Part shown: positions 4,701 to 33,835 of the stretch, piece by piece
How the letters are laid out: every line of letters begins with the position of its first letter
Position numbering within the stretch: the first letter of the stretch is position 1
DNA from: Eledone cirrhosa
Taxonomy: Eukaryota
Direction: 5' to 3'
DNA: 43,418 nt
NCBI GenBank assembly: GCA_964016885.1
Contig: CAXHJY010001516.1
Coordinates: forward strand, 1 to 43,418
Notes under the pieces: generated by a model
The model's database searches: none
What the model saw: only the letters and a program-made list of their open reading frames with translations
Told to the model about the DNA's origin: nothing
Program-made: the position numbers and the translations under genes

Positions 4701-6445
4701 ATACTCTACTCCCCAGTCTAGGTGGTATATCTAAGCTGTGGTAGAGAGTGACAGACTCTACACCCCAGTCTAGGTGGTGTAATCTCAGCTGTGGTAGAGA
4801 GTGACAGACTCTACACCCCAGTCTAGGTGGTATATCACAGCTGTGGTAGAGAGTGAGAGACTCTACACCCCAGTCTAGGTGGTATATCTCAGCTGTGGTA
4901 GAGAGTGACAGACTCTACACCCCAGTCTAGGCGGTATATCTCAGCTTTGGTAGAGTGTGACAGACTCTACACCCCAGTCTAGGTGGTATATCTCAGCTTT
5001 GGGAGAGTGTGACATACTCTACTCCCCAGTCTAGGTGGTATATCTCAGCTATGGTAGAGAGTGACAGACTCTACACCCCAGTCTAGGTGGTATATCTCAG
5101 CTGTGGTAGAGAGTGACAGACTCTACACCCCAGTCTAGGTGGTATATCTCAGCTGTGGTAGAGAGTGAGAGACTCTACACCCCAGTCTAGGTGGTATATC
5201 TCAGCTGTGGTAGAGAGTGAGAGACTCTACACCCCAGTCTAGGTGGCATATCTCAGTTGTGGTAGAGAATGACAGACTCTACACCCCAGTCTAGGTGGTA
5301 TATCTCAGCTGTGGTAGAGTGATATACTCTACACCCCAGTCTAGGTGGTATATCTCAGCTGTGGTAGAGAATGACAGACTCTACACCCCAGTCTAGGTGG
5401 TATATCTCAGCTGTGGTAGAGAGTGACAGACTCTACACCCCAGTCTAGGTGGTATATCTCAGCTGTGGTAGAGAGTGACAGACTCTACACCCCAGTCTAG
5501 GTGGTGTATCTCAGCTGTGGTAGAGTGTGACAGACTACACCCCAGTCTAGGTGGTATATCTCAGCTGTGGTAGAGAGTGACAGACTCTACACCCCAGTCT
5601 AGGTGGTGTATCTCAGCTGTGGTAGAGTGTGACAGACTACACCCCAGTCTAGGTGGTATATCTCAGCTGTGGTAGAGAGTGACAGACTCTACACCCCAGT
5701 CTAGGTGGTATATCTCAGCTGTGGTAGAGAGTGACATACTCTACACCCCAGTCTAGGTGGTGTATCTCAGCTGTGGTAGAGTGTGACAGACTACACCCCA
5801 GTCTAGGTGGTATATCTCAGCTGTGGTAGAGTGATAGACTCTACACCCCAGTCTAGGTGGTGTATCTCAGCTGTGGTAGAGAGTGACAGACTCTACACCC
5901 CAGTCTAGGTGGTATATCTCAGCTGTGGTAGAGAGTGACAGACTCTACACCCCAGTCTAGGTGGTATATCTCAGCTGTGGTAGGGAGTGACATACTCTAC
6001 ACTCCAGTCTAGGTGGTATATCTCAGCTGTGGTAGAGAGTGACAGACTCTACACCCCAGTCTAAGTGGTGTATCTCAGCTGTGGTAGGGAGTGACATACT
6101 CTACACTCCAGACTAGGTGGTATATCTCAGCTGTGGTAGAGAGTGACAGACTCTACACCCCAGTCTAGGTGGTATATCTCAGCTGTAGTAGAGTGATAGA
6201 CTCTACACCCCAGTCTAGGTGGTATATCTCAGCTGTGGTAGAGAGTGACAGACTCTACACCCCAGTCTAGGTGGTATATCTCAGCTGTGATAGGGAGTGA
6301 CATACTCTACACTCCAGTCTAGGTGGTATATCTCAGCTTTGGTAGAGAGTGACATACTCTACACCCCAGTCTATGTGGTATATCTCAGCTGTGGTAGAGA
6401 GTGACAGACTCTACTCCCCAGTCTAGGTGGTATATCTCAGTTGTG
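1798..6445. repeat. 52-bp minisatellite array, ~89 copies
   Basis: Unit ACTCTACACCCCAGTCTAGGTGGTATATCTCAGCTGTGGTAGAGAGTGACAG; first units start at 1798 and 1850. Confidence 0.98.
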
Positions 6446-8145: not shown

Positions 8146-9247
8146 GCCCGGGTTAAAGTGGAGGGTAGAGTGATGTCTTGGGTGTGGTTGTGTGTTCCGA
8201 AGGGAAGACATTGGTAGATGTGCGTGGCTTTAGTCCGTGTGTGTGTGTGTGTGTGCGTGGAGACGTGGTGTGTATACTGGTATGTGTGTGTATATTTACA
8301 TGTGTGTGTATATCAGTGAGTTCTTGTTTTGGCGTGTGTGTATGTGTGTGTATATTTACATGTGTATGTATATATGTTTGAGCGTGTGTTGGCTTATATT
8401 ATCTGTAGAAAGAAGCTTTTGTGTGTGTGTGTGAGATTTTGCATATACATACACACAAACACAAACACACACACACACATATATATATGCATGTATATAC
8501 ATTTAAATGTATGAATATTTATATACAGACATATATCTCTCTCTCTATATATATATGTGTATGCGTATATATATATTATATATGTATGTGTATAAATATA
8601 TGTATACATATATATGTGTGTCTGTGTGTGTATGTATGTGTGTGTGTGTATGTAAATGTGTGTGTGTTTATGTATGTATGCATGTGTGTGTATGTGTGTA
8701 TGTATGTATGTAAGTGTGCGTGTGTGTGTATGTAAGTGTGTGCGTGTGTGTATGTAAGTGTATGTATGTATGTATGTATGTAAATATGTGTGTATGTAAG
8801 TGTGTGTGTGTATGTATGTAAGTGTGTGCGTATGTATGTAAGTGTATGTGTATGTATGTATATGTGCGTGTGTATGTATGTGTGTGTGTATGTATGTGTG
8901 TGTATGTAAGTATGTGTGTATGTATGTAAGTGTGTGTGTGTGTGTATGTAAGTCTGTGTGTGAGTGTGTATGTAAGTGTGTTTGTGTGTATGTATGTAAG
9001 TGTATGTAAGTGTATATGTATGTATGTAAGTATGTAAGTGTGTGTATGTGTGTGTGTAAAAAGGGATTATAGAAACGTCAACTCCGGAATCAAATTTCCC
9101 TGCCTCTCCCCCGTCCCCTCACACATCCAGAAAAAATATAAAAATATACAAATATACAACTGACATATACACAGATACACACACACACACATATATATAT
9201 ATATGTCTTCTACCCCCCCCCCCACACATATATATATATCTATATAT

Positions 9248-9423
9248 AACGAAGGAAGTGTGGTAAGGAACCAGGTGGACCATAACGCACCAGAGTACTC
9301 AATACTTAGGGTAGTAGAGTGGGTAATAGGAAAATGTTTAACCCCGACGGCAGAGCTCAAGCCGTTTCTAAATAGCCGTCGAAACGGCTTGAGCTCTGCC
9401 GTCGGGGTTAAACATTTTCCTAT
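9248..9423. mobile_element. family A palindromic PLE-like terminus in (TA)n
   Basis: Inverted arms 9326-9368/9381-9423, left arm extended by a tail. Arm reads GAAA-CGGC-loop-GCCG-UC (hammerhead 3' half). Homologues at 16564, 17531, 32451, 33681 and 40125. Confidence 0.7.
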
Positions 9424-9505
9424 ATATATATATATATATAATGTATATATACATCTATCTCTCTATATATATTTATTCATATATAATTATATGTATTTAT
9501 ATATA

Positions 9506-10136: not shown

Positions 10137-10176
<40 letters not shown>

Positions 10177-10179
<3 letters not shown>

Positions 10180-10290
10180 ATAATAATAAATTTGAAGACT
10201 AAAATCCAAAGAGGGCTCGATAAGGATAAATATATATCAAATATATAAGAACCGTAGAGCAAATATTTATTAAAATCTGTTATTTTAATA
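10177..10290 (-). mobile_element. dispersed repeat, probable PLE tail (copy 1)
   Basis: Near-identical to 35173-35275, TA-flanked, carries the GCUC..UC-GAGC hairpin. Confidence 0.55.
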
Positions 10291-11534: not shown

Positions 11535-11766
11535 ATATTGTTATACTTGGGGAGGGTCATATTTGCGTAATATTGCCAGAATTAATAACAGAACACACTC
11601 ACTGTTTGGTTGGTTTTCGCTTCTAAGCGAAAACCAACCAAACAGTGAGTGTGTTCTGTTATTAATTCTGGCAATATTACGCAAATATGACCCTCCCCAA
11701 GTATAACAATATCTGTTTCGACACACGATTTCATATAAAAAACCTCGCAAAACTAATTCATCGCCG

Positions 11767-17489: not shown

Positions 17490-17530
<41 letters not shown>

Positions 17531-17532
<2 letters not shown>

Positions 17533-17735
17533 ACAGACTAGGTGTGGTAACAACCAAGTAGACCATAACCCACCAGACTACCTCGATACTTGGGGTAGTA
17601 GAGTGGGTAATATGAAAGATTCGGGACTCCGACGGCCGAGCTCTGGCCCTTCCGACAGCAAGATCCAAACAGTTCGGATCTAGCTGTCCAAACGGCCGGA
17701 GCTCGGCCGTCGGAGTCCCGAATCTTTCATATTAT
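17531..17735. mobile_element. family A palindromic copy
   Basis: Imperfect palindrome ~17608-17735 plus left tail. Confidence 0.65.
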
Positions 17736-17745
17736 CTTTCATATA

Positions 17746-17963
17746 AGGCGTGTGGCTGAGTGTTTAGAGAATTGGATTCGCAATCGTAAGGTTGTGAGTT
17801 CGATTCCCGGACCAGGCGATGCGTTATGTCCTTGAGCAAGACACTTTATTTCACGTTGCTCCTTCTACCTGGAGTTGCGACCGATAGATAGTATTAGCAA
17901 TTGGAAAGACCAACGGAAACATTGTTCCCTCGGTCCGATTTAACGAAAGTCGATCGTTCCTTT
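17746..17963 (+). mobile_element. tRNA-derived SINE
   Basis: A-box TGGCTGAGTG, B-box GTTCGATTCC, then TGTCCTTGAGCAAGACACT core; near-identical copy at 34917-35134. Confidence 0.85.
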
Positions 17964-17990
17964 ATATATATATATATATCTATATATATA

Positions 17991-18104: not shown

Positions 18105-18457
18105 TTTCTTTATTTGCCACAAGGACGCACAAGAAAAGGGGACAATACAAGGTCATATGCCGGGGATTTTACATACAGCCGTGTAAAAAATTGAAATAAA
18201 CAATTATAACAATAGGGGGGAGACGCCACAAATGGGTTGTTTAATACCCCGTCGATAGAACAACCCTCAACTTCAGGAGCGTGTTGTGCAAGTGCTCCTT
18301 TCTTCGTTTTGCTCTCTTCTTCAACCTACAGGCTTATAAACAGAGAAGGACCAATCACTCGGACCATTTTTGCCACATTCAGCCACCTTTCAGTAAATTT
18401 ACTGGGGTGCAGTGCCTCTCTCTCCACTCCGATTCTCCTTCTAAAGTGGTACCTAAA
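18105..18457 (-). mobile_element. 5'-truncated Tx1-like LINE 3' end (sister family B) in (GATA)n
   Basis: Degenerate RRIGVEREAL..ORF2 end plus 3' UTR; homologous to 31497-31851. Confidence 0.85.
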
Positions 18458-18489
18458 GATAGACAGATAGACAGATAGATAGATAGATA

Positions 18490-18877
18490 TGTTTCTTTAT
18501 TAGCCACAGGGGCACAAAAGAAAGGGACAAATACAAAGGGGGAAGTTTACATACAATAAAAACGTGTAAAATGTTATCACAAATGCAATTTAAAAAAATA
18601 GTCGATTTTCCCCAATAGGGGGAGACAGTTTATATGGGTAACACATACCCCCGAAAAAATGTGAAACCCTCATCTCCAGGAGTACGAAGAGTTTGTACTC
18701 CTTTTCTCTCCTCCTCCTTTTCCTCAACCTACAGGCTGATATAGAGAGAAGGCCCATTCACTCGGGCCATTCTCGCCACTTTCACCCACCTTTCATAAAA
18801 CTTGCTGGGGTACAGCACCTCTCTCTCCATCCTGATTCTTCTTCCAAAGTGGTATTTAAAAAAAAGAATCAGTTGTT
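18490..18877 (-). mobile_element. 5'-truncated Tx1-like LINE 3' end (family C) in (GATA)n
   Basis: QLILFFKYHFGRRIRMEREVLYPSKFYERWVKVARMARVNGPSLYISL*; near-identical to the 3' part of 38120-38639. Confidence 0.9.
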
Positions 18878-18895
18878 GATAGATAGATAGATAGA

Positions 18896-18957
18896 TTTCT
18901 TTATTAGCCACAAGGGCGCAACAAGAAAAGGGGACAATACAAAGACATGCCGGGGAT
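18896..18957 (-). mobile_element. 62-bp extreme 3' fragment of family B in (GATA)n
   Basis: Reverse complement matches 31790-31851. Confidence 0.85.
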
Positions 18958-18993
<36 letters not shown>

Positions 18994-19289
18994 AAATTCA
19001 TATCCCATCATACAACCAAAAACACGCAATACATATTAATAGAAAAGTAAAAGTCAGCGTCACACCCCTCCCCAGGGCAATTACAACAAACGGCTGAGAT
19101 GATGGTGGCGGTGGTGGAAAGAGACTCCTCTCATCCTTCTAATGGGGGTTCTCTATGAAGAAACACCACCCTCCCCACCGAAATCTCTTCCCAAATTCTA
19201 CCCCGTAGTTTCATTTGTCTTATGGATCTCCGTCGTTTTCGACAACGAGCGTCCCCGTACTTTGATTAACGGAAAAAAAAAAACTTGCT

Positions 19290-19410
19290 TCTGAAATTAA
19301 CGCGTAAGTGGTTGAGCATTCCACAATCACGTGCTTCCCTAATGCATTTCTCAGGGAGATTCAGCATGGCACAGTGTGAGAGGCAACAGACCCTTTGAAT
19401 GACAGATATA
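19290..19410 (+). mobile_element. degenerate SINE/LINE-tail fragment
   Basis: TAAGTGGTTGAGCATTCCAC..TTCTCAGGGAGATTCAGC..CCCTTTGAA, recalled from cephalopod-type repeats. Confidence 0.4.
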
Positions 19411-20243
19411 AACTCGTCTTTCCAAAGTTGATATCTCACCTCCACTTCCCCGTTCCCCGGGCGTTCACTCTACCCCTCCCAGGAACACAACACGCTCCAG
19501 AAGAGTTGACCTCACCCCGCCCCCAGGATCTCAAAACCGCCCCCCTCCAGCGCTCCCTAAATACAGTTTCACTTACCATTAAGCTAGTCAAAAAAAGTAA
19601 TCTTTCAAATGGTGGTCCTTTATGGAAACTCGTCTCCTTCTTTCCCTCTTTTCCCCGACTCTCTGGAGCTCCCACCATCCTCCAATAGCAGACCCCCTCA
19701 CCCCATCACCACCCCGGTTTGCTCCCCCACCGCCGCCTATGTAGTTTCACTTACCATTAAGCTGGCCAACCAACTAAAAAGGCTTTCTCTGTTGTTTTAA
19801 CATGGCGGCCGCTTCGAATTCACAAAATTGAACAAAACATTCGTTTATTTGTATTGCTACACAACACTATGTTACCCCACACTACACCACACCACACTAC
19901 ATCACCCCCACACTACACCACACCACACTACATCACCCTACACTTCACCACACCAGACTATACTACACCAAACCACATCACACAACGCCAGACACATGTG
20001 CCTGTGAGTTCATATCTACCTATCTATCTATCTATCTATCTTGATAGAGTAAGACACGCTTCGCATCGGCTCCGCTATTCCATCGGGATTTACCCTTACT
20101 ATTGTAAGTACCGGATAAAATTTTTAGTGCAACACATTTGGAACACTAACCCCTGTTATTTAGGGAAACATTTTTGCATTTACCCCCTTTTTAGGGGGTA
20201 AAATAAATATCTATTTTTGCCGAAAAATTTCTTTCTTGGCAGC

Positions 20244-22079
20244 ATGGCGGAAAAGATGGCAGACATGTCTGCCATTAGCTCTGCCACGCCCCCCAAGTCT
20301 GAAGAACAAAAAATAATTACAACAAAATTAGACATTGAAACAAACAAACAAAATGAAAAAACAAATGTTAAGGAAAATGAGCAAACAGAAAACAAACAAA
20401 CAGAAAATAATACAAATAACGACAGGGCAACTTTCGCCCAGAAAACAAAGCAATCCATTACATACACACCAATTGACCTAACTGCCGCCAGAGAAAAACT
20501 GGCCGAAGCAAAGAAACATATTGTTTTGGGAGAGAACGGAATGTTTTCCATTAACTCCCCCCCAGAATTCAAGAAAGCCAGAGAAGAAAACACAGTTATA
20601 TACAGAACTATACTAAACCAGTCAAGAAAGCCAGCACAGCCCAGCCAAATGGAAATAGAGTTAGTCCTAAAAGACTATATGAAGAATATTCTCTTCATAC
20701 GAAAGGACCGACTCTATGGCAGCATTTCGGTCCTAACAAGAGACAAAGAAACGGCGGTTCAGCTTTCCCTAAGCCCACTCTCGTCGACAACATATAGCTT
20801 CTATCCCTCCTACATGGGTAGAAGAACACAGAGGGTAAAAGTAAAAACAATGCTGCCCACAATGGACTTCTGGTGGGCTATTGCTGGCTTCATTGATATG
20901 GGCGAAGACACTATGCTGTCAATGGGGAAGGCAACTGGAGATGCGTTCCTGGGAATGGGCCTCGACATACTAGTCCAAATGAGGCCCGAAAGAATAGCAC
21001 AAATCCCGGATCGCATCTGGCTGGATGACCTTACCCCAATAGACATAATTGTAGAGGGGAGAAGACCAGCATGCTATTTATGCATGGAAAGGGGACACGT
21101 TAAGGCTAACTGCCCGAAACGTATCCCCCAAAAAGGACTATTGCCCACACCCACCACAAACAGTACACCAGCACCACCCACCTCCAAAAATACACTAATA
21201 CCACACACAGCAAACAAAATACAGACACCACCAACCACAAACACAACACAAACATCACCACCACCAGCACCAAACACAAGCACGACACAAAAATCACCAC
21301 CACCAACCACAACACAAACATCACCACCACCATTACCAACCACAAGCACGACACAAACATTACCACCACCACCACCACAAAACCCATTCCAAACAAATAA
21401 TAAAAAAAACAGTAACAAATCTACCCCTCCCGCAAAAAAAAAACAACCACACAACACGTCCCTCCCACCTAGCGCTGAAGAGTTTCCCCCAACTTCTGAA
21501 GAAGAAGGAGGAGAAGCCTTCAGACAAGTTAAAAGAAAAAAAAGAAAACACACACCCAGCACACCACAAATAACCCACACACAAACACCAACTCCAATCA
21601 AAAACACCCCACCCTCAACAAACAAAAATAAATCTGCGCCTCCCCTCTCCGAAACATTGACAGCATCACAAAAAAAGACGTTGCAATACACATATATAAA
21701 TAAAGAAAACAAAAAACTGGTTAAATTAATAAACAATAACCCTATGGTGCAGACCGAAGGGCCAAACTTTATCTCAACAGAGAACTTCACCCATTTAAAA
21801 ATGATAAAGGTCCCTCTGGACCTTTATCGTTCCTTAAAAGAACAATTTAGACGGGACGTGAGCCCCCCCTGTTTAAAACCGTTGAATCGCGTCCTCTTGA
21901 AAGATTTCCCCATAACCGCCCCTCTCCCTGACACAACTCCAAATACCCCAACCCCACCACACACGTGTACCCCCACACCACCACAAAACATCCCTCCACC
22001 CAACACACCTGATGCCATGGAAATTACGCAACCCGGAGAGGTAAGTGCTTTTCTTTCTTCACTTTCAACACCAAAATAG
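20244..22079 (+). CDS. LINE ORF1 (gag-like, CCHC zinc knuckle, Pro/Thr-rich), intact
   Basis: ATG in GCAGCATGG context; CYLCMERGHVKANC = CX2CX4HX4C; basic KRKKRK; 611 aa. Confidence 0.9.
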   Translation: MAEKMADMSAISSATPPKSEEQKIITTKLDIETNKQNEKTNVKENEQTENKQTENNTNNDRATFAQKTKQSITYTPIDLTAAREKLAEAKKHIVLGENGMFSINSPPEFKKAREENTVIYRTILNQSRKPAQPSQMEIELVLKDYMKNILFIRKDRLYGSISVLTRDKETAVQLSLSPLSSTTYSFYPSYMGRRTQRVKVKTMLPTMDFWWAIAGFIDMGEDTMLSMGKATGDAFLGMGLDILVQMRPERIAQIPDRIWLDDLTPIDIIVEGRRPACYLCMERGHVKANCPKRIPQKGLLPTPTTNSTPAPPTSKNTLIPHTANKIQTPPTTNTTQTSPPPAPNTSTTQKSPPPTTTQTSPPPLPTTSTTQTLPPPPPQNPFQTNNKKNSNKSTPPAKKKQPHNTSLPPSAEEFPPTSEEEGGEAFRQVKRKKRKHTPSTPQITHTQTPTPIKNTPPSTNKNKSAPPLSETLTASQKKTLQYTYINKENKKLVKLINNNPMVQTEGPNFISTENFTHLKMIKVPLDLYRSLKEQFRRDVSPPCLKPLNRVLLKDFPITAPLPDTTPNTPTPPHTCTPTPPQNIPPPNTPDAMEITQPGEVSAFLSSLSTPK

Positions 22080-22084
22080 ATCAA

Positions 22085-25000
22085 TTGAGAGTTGGCTGTT
22101 TGAACGCGCGTGGCCTGAGCTCAGCTTGGAAGCAAGCAAAGCTTCTAAGTGACCTCAGGTCACAAAGTATAGATGTGATGGTTGTTTGCGAGAGTCGGAT
22201 CAGCAGCGTGAGACAGCTGGCGCCCGCCTTCGATGACTTTGAGATGCACGCATCTCTCTGTCAACCCGGAGGCGGGGGGGGGAGTTGCCGTACTGCTGGA
22301 TAAACGTCTAACTCTCGACGTACAGATTGTTCACTCGGACCCGGGGGGTCGATTACTGGTGCTGGACGTCGGAGGTGGTGAAGGCGGGGCTTTCAGACTG
22401 GTCGGTCTTTATGCTCCCTTCGGGGCGGAGAGAGCCGACTTCTTCCAACGTCTGGAGACTTTTCTAGGAACGTCGCGTTCCCTGCTTTTAGTGGGGGACT
22501 GGAATGGAATCCTAGATGCGCGTTGGGACTATGCAGGGGCATGTCCCGATAGAGGGGGGTGTAGCAGCCTCAAGGGGTTACTCGATCGATTCGACCTGGT
22601 CGATAGATTTCGACTAGATTGTCCAACTGCGCCAACCTGGACCTGGGCAAACCGCAGTGGACAATCTAGATCGTACCTAGATAGGTTTTTGGTTAGGAGT
22701 AAGGATAGGGACGTATTTAGTTGTCCAGAACTGATCATGGTTGGCTATTCAGATCACAAATTAGTGACCTGCGTGGTCAACCTTGATAGAACGCATAGAC
22801 AGGGTCCCGGTTACTGGAAGATGAACTTGTCCTTACCGACAAAGAAAGATTACAGAAACCGGATTAGTAGCTTAGTTAAGATGCGGTTGACGGGAGCGAT
22901 CGTCAACAGTAGGTGGTGGATATCTCTAAAGAGAGAGATTAGAGTAAGTTCGATAGGTTACAGTAAGGAACTAGCGGCGAATAGAAATAGGAGGGAAAGG
23001 GAGTTAACAGATAAACTAGAAGAGGCGATTAGGAGCGGAGACGTAGCCAGAGTGTTAGCGACGAGAACGGCATTGAGCCAGTTCTTTGACACGAAGCACG
23101 AAGGCTGCGTTGTCCGAAGTAAAATACGTGCTTTAGGAAACGAGGGGACCAAAGCTGTTAGCTGGGCCCGCGTGACAGAAGCCAAGAGTGGGATTAAATC
23201 CACCATTCGGTCTTTGCGAGACCAGGATGGACGGGTGATCCTTGAACCTGAGCGAATGTGCGAGACCTTTCAAAGGCACTTTGCTCGACTGTTCGGAGGT
23301 GGCGGGGGGCCGGACGGGGATGTGGACTTCGGTCCATACCTCGACGGTCTACCGCGTCTTTCGAGCGGCGAAGCGGAGTGCTGCGAAGGGCCAATCACAG
23401 CCACTGAAATCGGGGAAGCGCTCAGCCAATGCAGCAGACGCAAATCCCCGGGTCTCGATGGTCTACCATACGAACTTTATTTAGCTATGCCGGTCTTGTT
23501 CTCCGAACTCCTCGAGGCTGTCTATTGCAACTGGCAACAGAACGGGAGAATTCCCTGTTCTGTGACCAAGGGCGTGGTCACGCTAGTGAGGAAGGACGAG
23601 AGCAAGGGGGACGACTTAAGTAACTTTAGGCCCATAACTCTGCTGAATGCAGAGTTACAGATTTTGGCCAAGGTGTTGGCGAAGAGGTTGGCGCTTGTGG
23701 TGGGTGGTTTGGTGGGAGACGCGCAGACATGCGCTATCCCGTCCAGGTCCATTCACGACAACCTCCACCTCATGCGATACATCATAGAGAGGGTTGGCTA
23801 CGAACCCGGCTTTGGTGGGGCCCTGATCAACTTGGATCAATCTAAGGCGTTCGATAGGGTCGACCATGGTTACCTGGATGCGGTGCTAGCGGCGGCGGGC
23901 TTCGGACCCGTTTTCAGGGGCTGGATTTCTGCCATGCACAGTGGCAACATCTACTCTAGGATTAAAGTAAACGGCTACCTCTCGGAGCCGTTTCAAATCA
24001 CCCGATCCATCAGACAGGGGTGCCCCCTCTCCTCCCTTCTGTACGTATTGACTCTCGAGCCACTGCTGCGGAAGTTGGAGTTGCTGCGGGGCATACCCCT
24101 GGAACCGGGATTGCACAAAGCGGTCTCGGCCTATGCCGACGACGTAACAGTAATGGTGGCGGACGCCTCGGAAATCGGGGCGATCGCCACCCTACTGGAG
24201 GAATACGAAAGGCTGACGGGGGCTAAGCTGAACCAGGACAAGTCAGTCGGTTTGCAACTCGGAACGTGGAGGGGCAAACCGATGCCGTTAGACGGTGTCG
24301 TCGGGCGGTGGACGGAGGGCCCGGTGAAGCTGCTCGGGGTCTGGTTCGGACCGGACCTCCAGGTGGAGAAGAATTGGGGCGAGGTGACGAGCAGGGTGTT
24401 TGCGCTGACCCAGAAGTGGGCCAAGTGCAAACTATCACTGAAAGGTCGGGCGGAGGTGACGAACGCTTACATAGCGTCCGTCATCTACTACCGCCTGACC
24501 GTCGTGCCTTGCCCCAAGGAAAAGCTCACCATCATGGAACGCATGCTCTTCCAGTTCCTCTGGAAGAAGCGGCCTCCCATGGTGAGGAGATCCATCTGCT
24601 GCCAGCACCCTTCGAAAGGAGGGCTGGGTATGCCGTGGCTGTTGATGCGTAGGCACGCATTGAGGCTACGGCATCTACAGGTATTCCTCAACGGTCAGCC
24701 GGTGTGGGCCCCGTTTGTGAGGCGAGCCTTCCCACAGCTCGTCTCGCTCACCGAACTGCAATCCTGGGTGAAGCAAAGACCGAGAAAACTGGGCAACTGG
24801 CACACTGAGTGTGCCCAGGCGCTCACGGCTATCTGGCAAGCGGACCCGACTGTCAGTGGAGAATCCACCTCGACATTCTATAGAGGGTTGGTGGCTAGCA
24901 GGGGCGACGACACCCTTGGAGAGTCGCTAGGCATGGAGGAGGACGAACTGGCCAGCCTGTTCGGTAGAACTTTCGGCCCGGGACCCATGGACAACTTCCA

Positions 25001-25514
25001 GAGGTCCCTAGCCTGGCAGTGTTACCGGGGGGCTCTGCCCGTTCGAGAAAAGCTCTACAGACACGGGCGCCCGGGCAGGGATCCCGCGAAAAAGATCTGT
25101 CCCAGATGCGTGCGCGACGAGGAAACCGTTGCGCATGCACTGGTACACTGCCCGGGCGTTGCCGATCTGTGGGGCTACGTCGAACGACTGCTGTCGCGTG
25201 TGGCGCCGATTCGATTAACCGCCGAGTCTGTGGTGAACATCAAGCCGCCTCCTCCCTTCAGAAATGAAGCAGAGGCGGTCTTTCTGTGCGTAATAGCCAT
25301 GATGAAAGAGGTTGTGTGGTGGACGCGCCTGAAAGGTCTGAGGTCGGGTGACTTTCTCTCCGGCCATCACCTGGTTTACTTCTTCCGATACCACTTCGGA
25401 AGAAGAATCAGGATGGAGAGAGAAGTGCTTGGTCCCAGACAGTTTTATGAAAGGTGGGTGAAAGAAGCGAGAATGGCCCGTGTAAATGGGCCTTCTCTCT
25501 ACATTGTTCTGTAG
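22085..25514 (+). pseudogene. LINE ORF2 (APE-RT-Zn), copy 1, +1 frameshift in G-run 22274-22282
   Basis: G9 versus G8 in copy 2; otherwise the same protein. The frameshift may be a homopolymer sequencing error. Confidence 0.8.
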
Positions 25515-25957
25515 GTGAAGAAGTGAAGAGGAAAGGGGGAGCGCCTCCTCTCTGGGCTTCCCCCGCGAAAAGAGTTGCACACTTTTCGGGGGTATGTGCA
25601 ATCCCCAACACGCCCCCTCCCTTTTGAGGACTTTTTATTGTTATATTATTATTGTTATTCCTTTTTTCTTTACTCGATTTATGTAAACTCCCCCACTGTG
25701 TAAATGTCCCCTTCTTTTGTGCCCTCGTGGCAAATAAATAGAAATTTATCTATCTTGATAGAGTAAGACACGCTTCGCATCGGCTCCGCTATTCCATCGG
25801 GATTTACCCTTACTATTGTAAGTACCGGATAAAATTTTTAGTGCAACACATTTGGAACACTAACCCCTGTTATTTAGGGAAACATTTTTGCATTTACCCC
25901 CTTTTTAGGGGGTAAAATAAATATCTATTTTTGCCGAAAAATTTCTTTCTTGGCAGC

Positions 25958-27794
25958 ATGGCGGAAAAGATGGCAGACATGTCTGCCATTAGCTCTGCCA
26001 CGCCCCCCAAGTCTGAAGAACAAAAAATAATTACAACAAAATTAGACATTGAAACAAACAAACAAAATGAAAAAACAAATGTTAAGGAAAATGAGCAAAC
26101 AGAAAACAAACAAACAGAAAATAATACAAATAACGACAGGGCAACTTTCGCCCAGAAAACAAAGCAATCCATTACATACACACCAATTGACCTAACTGCC
26201 GCCAGAGAAAAACTGGCCGAAGCAAAGAAACATATTGTTTTGGGAGAGAACGGAATGTTTTCCATTAACTCCCCCCCAGAATTCAAGAAAGCCAGAGAAG
26301 AAAACACAGTTATATACAGAACTATACTAAACCAGTCAAGAAAGCCAGCACAGCCCAGCCAAATGGAAATAGAGTTAGTCCTAAAAGACTATATGAAGAA
26401 TATTCTCTTCATACGAAAGGACCGACTCTATGGCAGCATTTCGGTCCTAACAAGAGACAAAGAAACGGCGGTTCAGCTTTCCCTAAGCCCACTCTCGTCG
26501 ACAACATATAGCTTCTATCCCTCCTAGATGGGTAGAAGAACACAGAGGGTAAAAGTAAAAACAATGCTGCCCACAATGGACTTCTGGTGGGCTATTGCTG
26601 GCTTCATTGATATGGGCGAAGACACTATGCTGTCAATGGGGAAGGCAACTGGAGATGCGTTCCTGGGAATGGGCCTCGACATACTAGTCCAAATGAGGCC
26701 CGAAAGAATAGCACAAATCCCGGATCGCATCTGGCTGGATGACCTTACCCCAATAGACATAATTGTAGAGGGGAGAAGACCAGCATGCTATTTATGCATG
26801 GAAAGGGGACACGTTAAGGCTAACTGCCCGAAACGTATCCCCCAAAAAGGACTATTGCCCACACCCACCACAAACAGTACACCAGCACCACCCACCTCCA
26901 AAAATACACTAATACCACACACAGCAAACAAAATACAGACACCACCAACCACAAACACAACACAAACATCACCACCACCAGCACCAAACACAAGCACGAC
27001 ACAAAAATCACCACCACCAACCACAACACAAACATCACCACCACCATTACCAACCACAAGCACGACACAAACATTACCACCACCACCACCACAAAACCCA
27101 TTCCAAACAAATAATAAAAAAAAACAGTAACAAATCTACCCCTCCCGCAAAAAAAAAACAACCACACAACACGTCCCTCCCACCTAGCGCTGAAGAGTTT
27201 CCCCCAACTTCTGAAGAAGAAGGAGGAGAAGCCTTCAGACAAGTTAAAAGAAAAAAAAGAAAACACACACCCAGCACACCACAAATAACCCACACACAAA
27301 CACCAACTCCAATCAAAAACACCCCACCCTCAACAAACAAAAATAAATCTGCGCCTCCCCTCTCCGAAACATTGACAGCATCACAAAAAAAGACGTTGCA
27401 ATACACATATATAAATAAAGAAAACAAAAAACTGGTTAAATTAATAAACAATAACCCTATGGTGCAGACCGAAGGGCCAAACTTTATCTCAACAGAGAAC
27501 TTCACCCATTTAAAAATGATAAAGGTCCCTCTGGACCTTTATCGTTCCTTAAAAGAACAATTTAGACGGGACGTGAGCCCCCCCTGTTTAAAACCGTTGA
27601 ATCGCGTCCTCTTGAAAGATTTCCCCATAACCGCCCCTCTCCCTGACACAACTCCAAATACCCCAACCCCACCACACACGTGTACCCCCACACCACCACA
27701 AAACATCCCTCCACCCAACACACCTGATGCCATGGAAATTACGCAACCCGGAGAGGTAAGTGCTTTTCTTTCTTCACTTTCAACACCAAAATAG
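25958..27794 (+). pseudogene. LINE ORF1 copy 2, disrupted
   Basis: TAC->TAG at 26525-26527 and A9 versus A8 at 27116-27124. Confidence 0.85.
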
Positions 27795-27799
27795 ATCAA

Positions 27800-30700
27800 T
27801 TGAGAGTTGGCTGTTTGAACGCGCGTGGCCTGAGCTCAGCTTGGAAGCAAGCAAAGCTTCTAAGTGACCTCAGGTCACAAAGTATAGATGTGATGGTTGT
27901 TTGCGAGAGTCGGATCAGCAGCGTGAGACAGCTGGCGCCCGCCTTCGATGACTTTGAGATGCACGCATCTCTCTGTCAACCCGGAGGCGGGGGGGGAGTT
28001 GCCGTACTGCTGGATAAACGTCTAACTCTCGACGTACAGATTGTTCACTCGGACCCGGGGGGTCGATTACTGGTGCTGGACGTCGGAGGTGGTGAAGGCG
28101 GGGCTTTCAGACTGGTCGGTCTTTATGCTCCCTTCGGGGCGGAGAGAGCCGACTTCTTCCAACGTCTGGAGACTTTTCTAGGAACGTCGCGTTCCCTGCT
28201 TTTAGTGGGGGACTGGAATGGAATCCTAGATGCGCGTTGGGACTATGCAGGGGCATGTCCCGATAGAGGGGGGTGTAGCAGCCTCAAGGGGTTACTCGAT
28301 CGATTCGACCTGGTCGATAGATTTCGACTAGATTGTCCAACTGCGCCAACCTGGACCTGGGCAAACCGCAGTGGACAATCTAGATCGTACCTAGATAGGT
28401 TTTTGGTTAGGAGTAAGGATAGGGACGTATTTAGTTGTCCAGAACTGATCATGGTTGGCTATTCAGATCACAAATTAGTGACCTGCGTGGTCAACCTTGA
28501 TAGAACGCATAGACAGGGTCCCGGTTACTGGAAGATGAACTTGTCCTTACCGACAAAGAAAGATTACAGAAACCGGATTAGTAGCTTAGTTAAGATGCGG
28601 TTGACGGGAGCGATCGTCAACAGTAGGTGGTGGATATCTCTAAAGAGAGAGATTAGAGTAAGTTCGATAGGTTACAGTAAGGAACTAGCGGCGAATAGAA
28701 ATAGGAGGGAAAGGGAGTTAACAGATAAACTAGAAGAGGCGATTAGGAGCGGAGACGTAGCCAGAGTGTTAGCGACGAGAACGGCATTGAGCCAGTTCTT
28801 TGACACGAAGCACGAAGGCTGCGTTGTCCGAAGTAAAATACGTGCTTTAGGAAACGAGGGGACCAAAGCTGTTAGCTGGGCCCGCGTGACAGAAGCCAAG
28901 AGTGGGATTAAATCCACCATTCGGTCTTTGCGAGACCAGGATGGACGGGTGATCCTTGAACCTGAGCGAATGTGCGAGACCTTTCAAAGGCACTTTGCTC
29001 GACTGTTCGGAGGTGGCGGGGGGCCGGACGGGGATGTGGACTTCGGTCCATACCTCGACGGTCTACCGCGTCTTTCGAGCGGCGAAGCGGAGTGCTGCGA
29101 AGGGCCAATCACAGCCACTGAAATCGGGGAAGCGCTCAGCCAATGCAGCAGACGCAAATCCCCGGGTCTCGATGGTCTACCATACGAACTTTATTTAGCT
29201 ATGCCGGTCTTGTTCTCCGAACTCCTCGAGGCTGTCTATTGCAACTGGCAACAGAACGGGAGAATTCCCTGTTCTGTGACCAAGGGCGTGGTCACGCTAG
29301 TGAGGAAGGACGAGAGCAAGGGGGACGACTTAAGTAACTTTAGGCCCATAACTCTGCTGAATGCAGAGTTACAGATTTTGGCCAAGGTGTTGGCGAAGAG
29401 GTTGGCGCTTGTGGTGGGTGGTTTGGTGGGAGACGCGCAGACATGCGCTATCCCGTCCAGGTCCATTCACGACAACCTCCACCTCATGCGATACATCATA
29501 GAGAGGGTTGGCTACGAACCCGGCTTTGGTGGGGCCCTGATCAACTTGGATCAATCTAAGGCGTTCGATAGGGTCGACCATGGTTACCTGGATGCGGTGC
29601 TAGCGGCGGCGGGCTTCGGACCCGTTTTCAGGGGCTGGATTTCTGCCATGCACAGTGGCAACATCTACTCTAGGATTAAAGTAAACGGCTACCTCTCGGA
29701 GCCGTTTCAAATCACCCGATCCATCAGACAGGGGTGCCCCCTCTCCTCCCTTCTGTACGTATTGACTCTCGAGCCACTGCTGCGGAAGTTGGAGTTGCTG
29801 CGGGGCATACCCCTGGAACCGGGATTGCACAAAGCGGTCTCGGCCTATGCCGACGACGTAACAGTAATGGTGGCGGACGCCTCGGAAATCGGGGCGATCG
29901 CCACCCTACTGGAGGAATACGAAAGGCTGACGGGGGCTAAGCTGAACCAGGACAAGTCAGTCGGTTTGCAACTCGGAACGTGGAGGGGCAAACCGATGCC
30001 GTTAGACGGTGTCGTCGGGCGGTGGACGGAGGGCCCGGTGAAGCTGCTCGGGGTCTGGTTCGGACCGGACCTCCAGGTGGAGAAGAATTGGGGCGAGGTG
30101 ACGAGCAGGGTGTTTGCGCTGACCCAGAAGTGGGCCAAGTGCAAACTATCACTGAAAGGTCGGGCGGAGGTGACGAACGCTTACATAGCGTCCGTCATCT
30201 ACTACCGCCTGACCGTCGTGCCTTGCCCCAAGGAAAAGCTCACCATCATGGAACGCATGCTCTTCCAGTTCCTCTGGAAGAAGCGGCCTCCCATGGTGAG
30301 GAGATCCATCTGCTGCCAGCACCCTTCGAAAGGAGGGCTGGGTATGCCGTGGCTGTTGATGCGTAGGCACGCATTGAGGCTACGGCATCTACAGGTATTC
30401 CTCAACGGTCAGCCGGTGTGGGCCCCGTTTGTGAGGCGAGCCTTCCCACAGCTCGTCTCGCTCACCGAACTGCAATCCTGGGTGAAGCAAAGACCGAGAA
30501 AACTGGGCAACTGGCACACTGAGTGTGCCCAGGCGCTCACGGCTATCTGGCAAGCGGACCCGACTGTCAGTGGAGAATCCACCTCGACATTCTATAGAGG
30601 GTTGGTGGCTAGCAGGGGCGACGACACCCTTGGAGAGTCGCTAGGCATGGAGGAGGACGAACTGGCCAGCCTGTTCGGTAGAACTTTCGGCCCGGGACCC

Positions 30701-31228
30701 ATGGACAACTTCCAGAGGTCCCTAGCCTGGCAGTGTTACCGGGGGGCTCTGCCCGTTCGAGAAAAGCTCTACAGACACGGGCGCCCGGGCAGGGATCCCG
30801 CGAAAAAGATCTGTCCCAGATGCGTGCGCGACGAGGAAACCGTTGCGCATGCACTGGTACACTGCCCGGGCGTTGCCGATCTGTGGGGCTACGTCGAACG
30901 ACTGCTGTCGCGTGTGGCGCCGATTCGATTAACCGCCGAGTCTGTGGTGAACATCAAGCCGCCTCCTCCCTTCAGAAATGAAGCAGAGGCGGTCTTTCTG
31001 TGCGTAATAGCCATGATGAAAGAGGTTGTGTGGTGGACGCGCCTGAAAGGTCTGAGGTCGGGTGACTTTCTCTCCGGTCATCACCTGGTTTACTTCTTCC
31101 GATACCACTTCGGAAGAAGAATCAGGATGGAGAGAGAAGTGCTTGGTCCCAGACAGTTTTATGAAAGGTGGGTGAAAGAAGCGAGAATGGCCCGTGTAAA
31201 TGGGCCTTCTCTCTACATTGTTCTGTAG
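27800..31228 (+). CDS. LINE ORF2: AP endonuclease + reverse transcriptase + C-terminal CCHC finger, open
   Basis: APE motifs LNARG, CES, YAP, GDWN, SYLDRF, SDH; RT motifs KSPGLDG, FRPITLLN, DQSKAFDRVDH, RQGCPLS, YADD; CPRC..H..C; Tx1-like LSLKGR and GGLGMP. TTG start. Confidence 0.95.
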   Translation: MRVGCLNARGLSSAWKQAKLLSDLRSQSIDVMVVCESRISSVRQLAPAFDDFEMHASLCQPGGGGGVAVLLDKRLTLDVQIVHSDPGGRLLVLDVGGGEGGAFRLVGLYAPFGAERADFFQRLETFLGTSRSLLLVGDWNGILDARWDYAGACPDRGGCSSLKGLLDRFDLVDRFRLDCPTAPTWTWANRSGQSRSYLDRFLVRSKDRDVFSCPELIMVGYSDHKLVTCVVNLDRTHRQGPGYWKMNLSLPTKKDYRNRISSLVKMRLTGAIVNSRWWISLKREIRVSSIGYSKELAANRNRRERELTDKLEEAIRSGDVARVLATRTALSQFFDTKHEGCVVRSKIRALGNEGTKAVSWARVTEAKSGIKSTIRSLRDQDGRVILEPERMCETFQRHFARLFGGGGGPDGDVDFGPYLDGLPRLSSGEAECCEGPITATEIGEALSQCSRRKSPGLDGLPYELYLAMPVLFSELLEAVYCNWQQNGRIPCSVTKGVVTLVRKDESKGDDLSNFRPITLLNAELQILAKVLAKRLALVVGGLVGDAQTCAIPSRSIHDNLHLMRYIIERVGYEPGFGGALINLDQSKAFDRVDHGYLDAVLAAAGFGPVFRGWISAMHSGNIYSRIKVNGYLSEPFQITRSIRQGCPLSSLLYVLTLEPLLRKLELLRGIPLEPGLHKAVSAYADDVTVMVADASEIGAIATLLEEYERLTGAKLNQDKSVGLQLGTWRGKPMPLDGVVGRWTEGPVKLLGVWFGPDLQVEKNWGEVTSRVFALTQKWAKCKLSLKGRAEVTNAYIASVIYYRLTVVPCPKEKLTIMERMLFQFLWKKRPPMVRRSICCQHPSKGGLGMPWLLMRRHALRLRHLQVFLNGQPVWAPFVRRAFPQLVSLTELQSWVKQRPRKLGNWHTECAQALTAIWQADPTVSGESTSTFYRGLVASRGDDTLGESLGMEEDELASLFGRTFGPGPMDNFQRSLAWQCYRGALPVREKLYRHGRPGRDPAKKICPRCVRDEETVAHALVHCPGVADLWGYVERLLSRVAPIRLTAESVVNIKPPPPFRNEAEAVFLCVIAMMKEVVWWTRLKGLRSGDFLSGHHLVYFFRYHFGRRIRMEREVLGPRQFYERWVKEARMARVNGPSLYIVL

Positions 31229-31459
31229 GTGAAGAAGTGAAGAGGAAAGGGGGAGCGCCTCCTCTCTGGGCTTCCCCCGCGAAAAGAGTTGCACACTTTT
31301 CGGGGGTATGTGCAATCCCCAACACGCCCCCTCCCTTTTGAGGACTTTTTATTGTTATATTATTATTGTTATTCCTTTTTTCTTTACTCGATTTATGTAA
31401 ACTCCCCCACTGTGTAAATGTCCCCTTCTTTTGTGCCCTCGTGGCAAATAAATAGAAAT

Positions 31460-31496
<37 letters not shown>

Positions 31497-31499
<3 letters not shown>

Positions 31500-31851
31500 A
31501 GAAGGAGAATCAGGGTGGAGAGAGAGGCACTGCACCTCAGTAAATTTACTGAAAGGTGGGTGAATGAAGCGAAAATGGCCCGAGTGATTGGGCCTTCTCT
31601 GTTTATAAGCCTGTAGGTTGAGGAAGAGAGCAAAATGAAGAAAGGAGCACTTGCACAACACGCTCCTCGAGTTGAGGGTTGTTCTATCGACGGGGTATTA
31701 AACAACCCATTTGTGGCGCCTCCCCCCTATTGGGGATTTCGATTGTTGAAATTGTTTGTTTTTATATTTTTTACACGACTGTATGTAAAATCCCCGGCAT
31801 GTCTTTGTATTGTCCCCTTTTCTTGTTGCGCCCTTGTGGCTAATAAAGAAA
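31497..31851 (+). mobile_element. family B LINE 3' fragment between (TATC)n tracts
   Basis: Homologous to 18105-18457; ends AATAAAGAAA then TCTATCTATC. Confidence 0.85.
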
Positions 31852-31875
31852 TCTATCTATCTATCTATCTATCTA

Positions 31876-31911
<36 letters not shown>

Positions 31912-32155
31912 ATATATATATAGATATATATATATTATATATATATTATATATATATATATTATATATATATATAGATACTATATTATACATTAATATAC
32001 ATATATATATATATATTAAAGTGTTAAACGATATTCAATGATTATATCAAAGAATGAGTTTTACAGTAGATTGGAAGCACTCTACAAAAAAATAATTTTC
32101 CGGAGTTATTAATATTAAAATATAAATATTAATAAAATAGATGTTCTTTTGATCA

Positions 32156-32218
32156 ATTACATTTTATTATACATATTTCGGAGGTACAACAGTACGTCCT
32201 CATCAGACAAAATATAAT
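32156..32218 (-). ncRNA. type I minimal hammerhead (mirror copy)
   Basis: Reverse complement of 32319-32381. Confidence 0.8.
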
Positions 32219-32318
32219 GATATATGACATACCCTGAGATGTTAAATGGTTAAGATTTAATCAAGGTAGTTGATTAAATCTTAACCATTTAACATCTCAG
32301 GGTATGTCATGTATCATC

Positions 32319-32381
32319 ATTATATTTTGTCTGATGAGGACGTACTGTTGTACCTCCGAAATATGTATAATAAAATGTAAT
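32319..32381 (+). ncRNA. type I minimal hammerhead ribozyme
   Basis: 12-bp stem I AUUAUAUUUUGU/AUAAAAUGUAAU; CUGAUGA 32331; stem II GGAcGUAC(uguu)GUACcUCC; GAAA 32358; UAUGUA; AUA triplet. Confidence 0.88.
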
Positions 32382-32416
32382 TGATCAAAAGAACATCTAT
32401 TTTATTAATATTTATA

Positions 32417-32450
<34 letters not shown>

Positions 32451-32454
<4 letters not shown>

Positions 32455-32645
32455 AACGAGTAGGACCCCGACGGCTGAGCTCAAGCCGTTTCGACGGCTA
32501 ATTCAGTCCAGAATTAGCCGTCGAAACGGCTTGAGCTCAGCCGTTGGGGTCCTACTCGTTCCTATTACCCACTCTACTACCCTAAGTATTGAGTACTCTG
32601 GTGCGTTATGGTCCACCTGGTTCCTTACCACATTTCCTTCGTTAT
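32451..32645. mobile_element. family A palindromic copy
   Basis: Arms ~32451-32504/32511-32565; tail to 32644. Confidence 0.7.
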
Positions 32646-32648
32646 ATA

Positions 32649-32715
<67 letters not shown>

Positions 32716-33278: not shown

Positions 33279-33449
<171 letters not shown>

Positions 33450-33550
33450 TAGAATTGGAGTATATATAATGTATTGCAAAATACATTATATATACATCCA
33501 TATATATATATGTATGTATATATATATATATATATTCATATATATATATT

Positions 33551-33632
<82 letters not shown>

Positions 33633-33680
33633 CATATATATATATGTATGTATGTATATGTATATATATATATATATATA

Positions 33681-33835
33681 TAGGAAAAAGAGTCTCAGTT
33701 CCCCGACGGCTGAGCTCCGGCCGTTTCGACAGCTAGATCCGACCCTTTTCCTATTAACCACTCTACTACTCTATGTATTGAGTACTCTGGTGCGTTATGG
33801 TTCACCTGGTTCCCTACCACACTTTCTTTGTTATA
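33681..33835. mobile_element. family A copy (inverted arm + tail)
   Basis: Homologous to 32451-32645. Confidence 0.65.

Follow-up and report, generated by a model that had tools for sequence, protein, structure and literature searches.

The window analysed here is a 43,418-nt stretch of contig CAXHJY010001516.1 (assembly GCA_964016885.1) from the octopod Eledone cirrhosa. It contains seven copies of one lineage of long interspersed nuclear elements (LINEs), six of which lie in (TATC)n/(GATA)n microsatellite tracts. We consider it moderately probable that this L1-group, Tx1-like lineage, represented by three families, genuinely, although not absolutely, prefers this repeat, and that the preference is led by the endonuclease of the element. 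The copies were located by blastn and tblastn across the whole window. A first-pass annotation had reported six of them, with targeting of (TATC)n/(GATA)n in a strict orientation. BLAST searches and junction reading recovered all six in place, with boundaries shifted by 1–2 nt. The set was nevertheless incomplete, since copy B2 (38120–38640, plus strand), 97% identical to copy B1, had been missed.

Two copies, both of family A, are full-length: A1 (20042–25746, plus strand, 5,705 nt) and A2 (25756–31460, plus strand). They are arranged head to tail and are 99.93% identical; over 5.7 kb only 4 positions distinguish them, namely 2 substitutions and 2 homopolymer indels. The other five of the seven copies are truncated at their 5′ end: C2 (18103–18457, minus strand, 355 nt covering the end of open reading frame (ORF) 2 and the 3′ untranslated region (UTR)), B1 (18490–18877, minus strand, 388 nt), C3 (18894–18959, minus strand, a 66-nt 3′ stub), C1 (31498–31853, plus strand, 356 nt) and B2 (about 520 nt). 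An ORF2 profile searched over six frames recovered seven domains from six copies, C3 being without a coding part. The division into three related families proposed in the first-pass annotation is borne out by 3′ identities over long alignments. These reach 71–73% (A–B), 64–74% (A–C) and 69–73% (B–C) between families, and 97% (B) and 88–100% (C) within them, C2 and C3 being respectively 88% and 100% identical to C1.

Six of the seven copies have TATC at both junctions and, read in the orientation of the element, the arrangement is always 5′-(TATC)n-element-(TATC)n-3′. As originally described, the minus-strand copies C2, B1 and C3 lie in plus-strand (GATA)n and the plus-strand copies A1, A2 and C1 in plus-strand (TATC)n. 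They form two head-to-head clusters separated by a 1-kb spacer (18992–20012). The left cluster comprises (GATA)2 in the 3′ flank of C2 (18095–18102), a degenerate GATA/GACA tract from the 3′ end of B1 to the 5′ end of C2 (18458–18489), a 16-bp (GATA)4 spacer from C3 to B1 (18878–18893) and (GATA)8 as its outermost 5′ flank (18960–18991). In the right cluster, the outermost 5′ flank consists of a degenerate stretch together with (TATC)5 (20013–20041). It is followed by an 8–9 nt TATC spacer from A1 to A2 (25747–25755), (TATC)9 from A2 to C1 (31461–31497), and (TATC)6 then (TA)n as the 3′ flank (31854–31877). Neither outermost 5′ flank has a recognizable element upstream of its TATC tract. All four truncated copies located in tracts (C2, B1, C3 and C1) have TATC upstream, as had been noted, and their truncation points differ. 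At three of these 5′ junctions (B1, C1 and C3), an overlap of 1–2 nt between TATC and the element can be read. At the other extremity, all seven copies end with AATAAA..GAAA-NN and then TAT, none carries a poly(A), and the family-specific ends (GAAATT in A, GAAACA in B, GAAATC in C) are in the same register ahead of TATC. The target duplication is 16 bp, (TATC)4, for B1 and 17–18 bp for B2. The C3–B1 spacer is also 16 bp, placing C3 exactly one duplication upstream of B1.

Outside the elements, AGAT-class tracts of at least 8 nt are scarce, with 16 tracts covering 248 of 30,323 bases (0.8%). Half of them (8/16) abut elements, as do all six tracts of at least 12 nt, and the eight element-free tracts are only 8–9 nt long. 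The association between elements and TATC does not reflect mere availability, because (AT)n (106 tracts, 2,690 bp) and (AC)n (1,166 bp) offer far more base pairs in the window. Binomial probabilities are 2e-12 when copies are counted (6/7) and 2e-4 when loci are counted (2/3), both values being optimistic as the window was chosen for its TATC feature and duplications lengthen the tracts. The six tract copies are not independent, because there are only two tract loci and because A1 and A2 may derive from one event. The orientation that had been called strict is indeed seen in 6/6 tract copies, at only two loci, with P = 0.03 for six independent events and 0.06 for five. However, uniform orientation follows from an asymmetric repeat of which one strand is nicked, and it is not separate evidence of novelty.

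Neither end of the B2 copy carries TATC. The copy is inserted in a (TA)-rich site, between exact 18-bp direct repeats starting at 38102 and 38640 (upstream copy, 38102–38119; downstream copy, 38640–38657, or 17 bp if its first A belongs to the element). Its 3′ end is intact, the TATC tail is absent, and the downstream sequence starts with TAT. B2 therefore indicates that there is neither a fixed element-encoded tail nor an absolute specificity; in this copy the preference is relaxed, with TAT retained at the junction. Of the specificity originally suggested, a preference is real (6/7 copies), but it is relaxed.

Repeats are added at the 3′ end by LINEs of the RTE, CR1 and L2 types. If the elements of the window added their own (TATC)n tail, with later copies nesting in these tails at a local hotspot, the tracts would be a product of insertion and not its target. 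The presence of six copies within 14 kb, and the fact that every AGAT-class tract of at least 12 nt abuts an element and none is free, could be explained in this way. In contrast, B2 has an intact 3′ end without TATC although it is 97% identical to B1, the TATC that precedes the 5′-most copy in each cluster is not itself preceded by an element, and the sister lineage described below has no such tail. Not every intact 3′ end therefore has the repeat, and TATC is present at 6/7 of the 5′ junctions. We consider such self-made tracts quite unlikely. The TATC found 5′ of 4/4 truncated copies, the tracts without upstream element, the tail-less B2 and the common register in which the three families end ahead of TATC, without poly(A), uphold the earlier choice of a target preference over an element-encoded tail.

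LINEs insert by target-primed reverse transcription, in which the endonuclease mainly sets the site (PMC4494074). In the mechanism that we infer for the window lineage, the ORF2 endonuclease would nick the GATA strand, cutting between A and G. This nick would prime reverse transcription, and the copied part of the transcript would end a few bases past AATAAA, without poly(A). The second strand would be cut about 16 bp along, producing the duplication of about 16 bp. Insertion would regenerate the target, so that copies would accumulate head to tail, and (TA)-rich sites with TAT at the junction would be used occasionally. Most of the preference would be supplied by the endonuclease. Sequence divergences make C2, B1, C3 the most likely order of insertion in the left cluster, each copy being inserted upstream of the previous one.

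Some features of the copy ends can be added. The truncation ends of C2, B1 and C1 (18457, 18877 and 31498; two families, 355–388 nt) fall within about 35 nt of one another near the end of ORF2, and this clustering suggests a possible preferred stop of reverse transcription. Family A starts, at its 5′ end, with an inverted copy of the target, the junction reading TCTATC-TT-GATAGA at 20036–20049 and 25750–25763. The potential fold of this junction is no stronger than that of shuffled sequences, and no conserved RNA fold was detected at the 3′ or 5′ end (4/4 stretches with z between +0.12 and −1.28).

Local duplication or assembly error could also have inflated the number of insertions. The A1/A2 pair would then have arisen by tandem duplication or be an assembly artefact, and a single ancestor would have given rise to both inverted clusters, leaving too few events. 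This proposal accounts for the few differences between A1 and A2 (2 substitutions and 2 homopolymer indels), for a spacer between them below the duplication length, and for the truncation of C1, C2 and B1 within about 35 nt (355–388 nt). On the other hand, C1 and C2 are only 88% identical and have different 5′ ends, the family content differs between the clusters, and five tract events are left even if A1 and A2 are counted once. An inverted segmental duplication of the two clusters was rejected, their outer flanks having (TA)n alone in common. We therefore regard duplication or misassembly as a very improbable explanation of the whole pattern.

The endonuclease to which we attribute most of the preference is encoded by an open ORF2 in A2 (27791–31228, plus strand, about 1,145 aa), which comprises an apurinic/apyrimidinic-type (APE) endonuclease, a reverse transcriptase and a zf-RVT motif. 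The corresponding Pfam matches are Exo_endo_phos (1.8e-11), RVT_1 (5.6e-24) and zf-RVT (2.9e-5, below its cut-off), and Pfam reported no RNase H family in ORF2. The motifs CLN, CES, LYAP, GDWN, YLD and SDH can be read in this ORF2, and the catalytic motifs of the endonuclease look intact. Neither full-length copy has both frames open: in A1, ORF1 is open (ATG at 20244, stop at 22079) and a G run near 22274 carries a frameshift that breaks ORF2, whereas in A2 it is ORF1 that is broken, the stop lying at 26527 and the frameshift near 27116, within an A run. The sole Pfam match of ORF1 is zf-CCHC (E = 0.019, below cut-off), a knuckle that is kept in the ORF1s of the sister lineage; no ORF1 homologue was found among 1,879 candidates in the protein set. 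In the Tx1 clade, ORF1 carries a CCHC knuckle and not the vertebrate L1 ORF1 domain. The window lineage has the organization expected of this clade, with two ORFs of which the second encodes the APE endonuclease, then the reverse transcriptase and a C-terminal zinc motif. The best solved relative of ORF2 is L1 ORF2p, at 171 bits, whereas the 4/4 proteins named TX1 or YTX2 score 288–325 bits. The nearest named protein among 77 matches is from Argonauta hians (64% identity), in keeping with an octopod host. FastTree (78 rows, 5 dropped for low coverage) placed the lineage beside fish proteins (support 1.00, branch 0.05), but IQ-TREE (50 rows, 1 dropped) does not recover this fish grouping; both trees were midpoint-rooted and built without Repbase references or an L1 outgroup. 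From these comparisons, it is reasonable to call the lineage Tx1-like, within the L1 group; the deep branching is unstable between the two trees, and membership of the Tx1 clade itself is likely but tentative. A profile-free search of representatives gave 2,789 relatives, which hold no target information. A search of plasmids gave no relative. The hairpin loop of the endonuclease, ANRSGQS, is shorter than the loop of chimera 2v0r, which we take to be derived from Tx1L; it varies among relatives and yields no prediction of specificity.

Upstream of its endonuclease domain, ORF2 lacks an ATG (27728–27900; 22013–22185 in A1), the first Met lies inside the domain, and the frame overlaps the stop of ORF1, whereas the ORF2 of relatives starts with Met. 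Without an ATG, translation of ORF2 would have to rely on re-initiation, a frameshift or a non-AUG start. The ORF1/ORF2 junction is preceded by a GTAAGT that resembles a splice donor, and by a pyrimidine tract.

A comparison was provided by a sister lineage. One scan of genome contigs gave 46 loci, of which 40 are on contigs CAXXMW01 (L001–L038, L042 and L046). The ORF2s of the latter are 41–43% identical to that of A2, their ORF1 is homologous (27%), and they form the sister clade of the clade grouping the window lineage and Argonauta (FastTree support 0.99; IQ-TREE SH-aLRT 99.6). These contigs are labelled as an Arenicella metagenome-assembled genome and consist mostly of eukaryote-type LINE tandem arrays with units of 6.4–6.9 kb, which are probably host contamination. 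The 3′ end is similar to that of the window copies (GTGCC..AATAAA), and the copies are arranged head to tail with a spacer of about 16 bp. The sister lineage differs by its long homogeneous arrays, its non-repetitive, array-specific spacers and its lack of (TATC)n. A 3′-end pattern run on the 40 CAXXMW01 loci gave 47 distinct junctions, the six distant loci being outside this count. None of the 47 is followed by (TATC)2 or more, and a single TATC begins one of them; TATC is also absent at four further junctions missed by the pattern. Each array has its own spacer of 14–18 nt, in nine classes (eight among the 47 junctions and a ninth), and the 51 junctions are therefore far from independent. 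The sites appear to be re-used, because the spacer recurs at the outer 5′ edge of array L028 (16 bp) and also precedes 5′-truncated copies in L021 (twice) and L007, in the manner of a target duplication. In one subfamily, a 15-nt spacer exists in about seven forms, and 600 nt of 3′ UTR differ by 0–3 bases (10/11 junctions). The tail-less 3′ end, the duplication of about 16 bp and the tandem piling are thus traits of the lineage, TATC having been seen only in the branch of the window.

The sister arrays hint that read-through RNA helps to choose the site. In the window, this role could be dominant: a loose endonuclease would cut after ATA, and a read-through (UAUC)n would pair with the GATA strand, fixing both site and orientation. 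The nine spacer classes of the sister lineage exist despite endonucleases that are 90–96% identical, the spacer stands at the array edge of L028 and before the truncated copies of L021 and L007, and poly(A) is absent from 7/7 of the window 3′ ends. In other systems, read-through pairing raises R2Ol insertion (PMC6530143) and SART1 accuracy (PMC7265360), and the 3′ repeats of RTE correlate with the cut site (PMC6007223). However, TATC is common to three families that are about 30% diverged, which a stable protein specificity explains simply. Moreover, the sister arrays may stem from one tandem pair by unequal exchange (PMC5932611), tail-to-internal junctions are few (three, two of them distinct), and pairing at the B2 site would extend over 3 nt at most. 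Site choice by the RNA flank is therefore doubtful as the main cause, and it is compatible with an endonuclease-led preference. We think it unlikely that the target is inherited from the 3′ flank of the donor, with a read-through, poly(A)-less RNA pairing with the nicked strand and sub-lineages homing to sites that are already occupied, namely (TATC)n in the octopod and unrelated sequences of about 16 bp in the sister arrays, under nearly identical endonucleases.

Several observations weigh against an endonuclease-led preference for (TATC)n. The tract copies occupy only two loci, 1 kb apart, in one window. This window has no long empty GATA tract, every tract of at least 12 nt being associated with an element, so that tracts and elements are inseparable in it. 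Only 8–9 nt separate A1 from A2, fewer than the 16 bp of a duplication, and the longest duplication around C2 is 7 nt. One copy of seven, and one of the two of family B, is outside a TATC tract. Finally, endonucleases that are 90–96% identical serve sister arrays of unrelated spacer, which argues that the site need not be set by the endonuclease by itself. The first-pass annotation, in crediting the APE domain with the specificity, therefore goes too far.

The rest of the window is microsatellite-rich animal DNA. The region separating the two clusters (18992–20012) was considered as a fourth, decayed family and rejected: Pfam found no family in the three minus-strand frames, two ORF2 profiles gave only −0.3 and −3.0 bits, compared with maxima of −0.6 and 0.9 for shuffled sequences, and 12/12 nucleotide alignments to the element were at or below shuffled maxima. 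Bounded by 8-bp direct repeats (18997 and 20009), it has inside it a CCACA-type array and a 27-bp repeat. Possibly an unrelated sequence inserted here where (GATA)n met (TATC)n. Just beyond the right cluster, a near-perfect 324-bp palindrome (32107–32430, arms 96–98% complementary) resembles miniature inverted-repeat or foldback elements. A 52-bp satellite occupies positions 1798–6445 (about 90 copies, 93% matches). Dispersed short repeats occur as pairs (17741–17964 with 34916–35140; 10140–10276 with 35137–35273) and at 9228–9450, 17515–17718, 32422–32663, 33377–33740 and 39292–39705. Their families show 75–98% identity between copies and are probably short interspersed nuclear elements; one has an internal (GATA)2 (17883 and 34990), which is not an insertion site. 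The sole Rfam match in the window, mir-181 at 11583–11665 (46.9 against a threshold of 45.5 bits), is probably a chance hairpin, and no tRNA gene was found in the window. Outside the window, one of the distant loci of the contig scan, L039 (CBDHHR010000099.1, 3036–10137, 27% ORF2 identity), joins a U1 small nuclear RNA gene. Its 3′ end (AATAAA and a short A run) continues into U1 from about nt 35, and the element is immediately preceded by an entire U1 gene, 157 bases being identical on the two sides. This single copy suggests that a Tx1-like element targets U1.

SART, TRAS, Waldo and Mino belong to the R1 clade of LINEs and Dong to the R4 clade. SART and TRAS in telomeric repeats (PMC7265360), like Waldo, Mino and Dong (PMC3812793), show the same strand-specific insertion into a simple repeat with a fixed orientation. 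SART1 uses RNA-target pairing but, in contrast to the window copies, has a poly(A) tail (PMC7265360). Head-to-tail copies around one duplication, as seen for C3–B1 (16 bp) and in the sister arrays, are described for SINEU-3 (PMC4494074) and for R1, jockey and P dimers (PMC5932611), whereas in the window three diverged families share a microsatellite as their site. Among Tx1 elements, the known microsatellite targets include (TC)n, (TTC)n, (TTCC)n and (TTTC)n (PMC4494074). The teleost elements Kibi, in (TC)n, and Koshi, in (TTC)n, are likewise APE-type and Tx1-like and insert in a microsatellite whose pyrimidine-rich unit ends with C (PMC4494074, PMC3812793). The window lineage differs from them by its TATC unit and its invertebrate host; no sequence named Kibi or Koshi was among the matches to it. 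The crocodilian Tx1 group also uses tetranucleotides, (TTCC)n and (TTTC)n, in a preferential and not absolute manner, and (TATC)n is one base away from (TTTC)n (PMC4494074). Here again the unit and the host are different, the window ORF2 scoring only 288 bits with the Alligator protein named transposon TX1. By the rule that a Tx1 family is microsatellite-specific when the repeat borders both sides in more than 20% of flanks (PMC4494074), the window lineage, with 6/7 copies in this window only, would be counted as such.

TATC matches none of the four Tx1 units given above and is not among the targets listed in PMC3812793 (ACAY, AC, TC, TTC and TAA). The main text of PMC4494074 contains neither GATA, TATC nor ATCT; such a family could be present in the target lists of its figure and supplements. 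A literature search, mostly at the level of listings and with Repbase and Dfam outside its scope, found no Tx1 family targeting GATA, TATC or AGAT. In Octopus vulgaris, 80 L1-Tx1 families have been annotated, 13 of them recently active (library deposited with PMC13282606); the parts of that text covered and its supplement present no target analysis. We therefore propose, provisionally, that (TATC)n is a new target unit for microsatellite-targeting Tx1-like LINEs, working as in Kibi, Koshi and the crocodilian families.

As a bare additional target unit, this finding would be of specialist interest only. A (GATA)n target would nevertheless add a very common repeat to the few microsatellites for which APE-type LINEs are known to be specific, and would bring cephalopods among the hosts concerned. 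The open ORF2 of A2 provides an endonuclease with which to ask how one scaffold shifts between (TC)n, (TTTC)n and (TATC)n, and the sister arrays make the respective parts of endonuclease and RNA pairing testable within one lineage. If the target were inherited through the RNA, the lineage would be a case of an APE-type LINE that RNA has retargeted in nature, and would offer a route to new sequence specificities.

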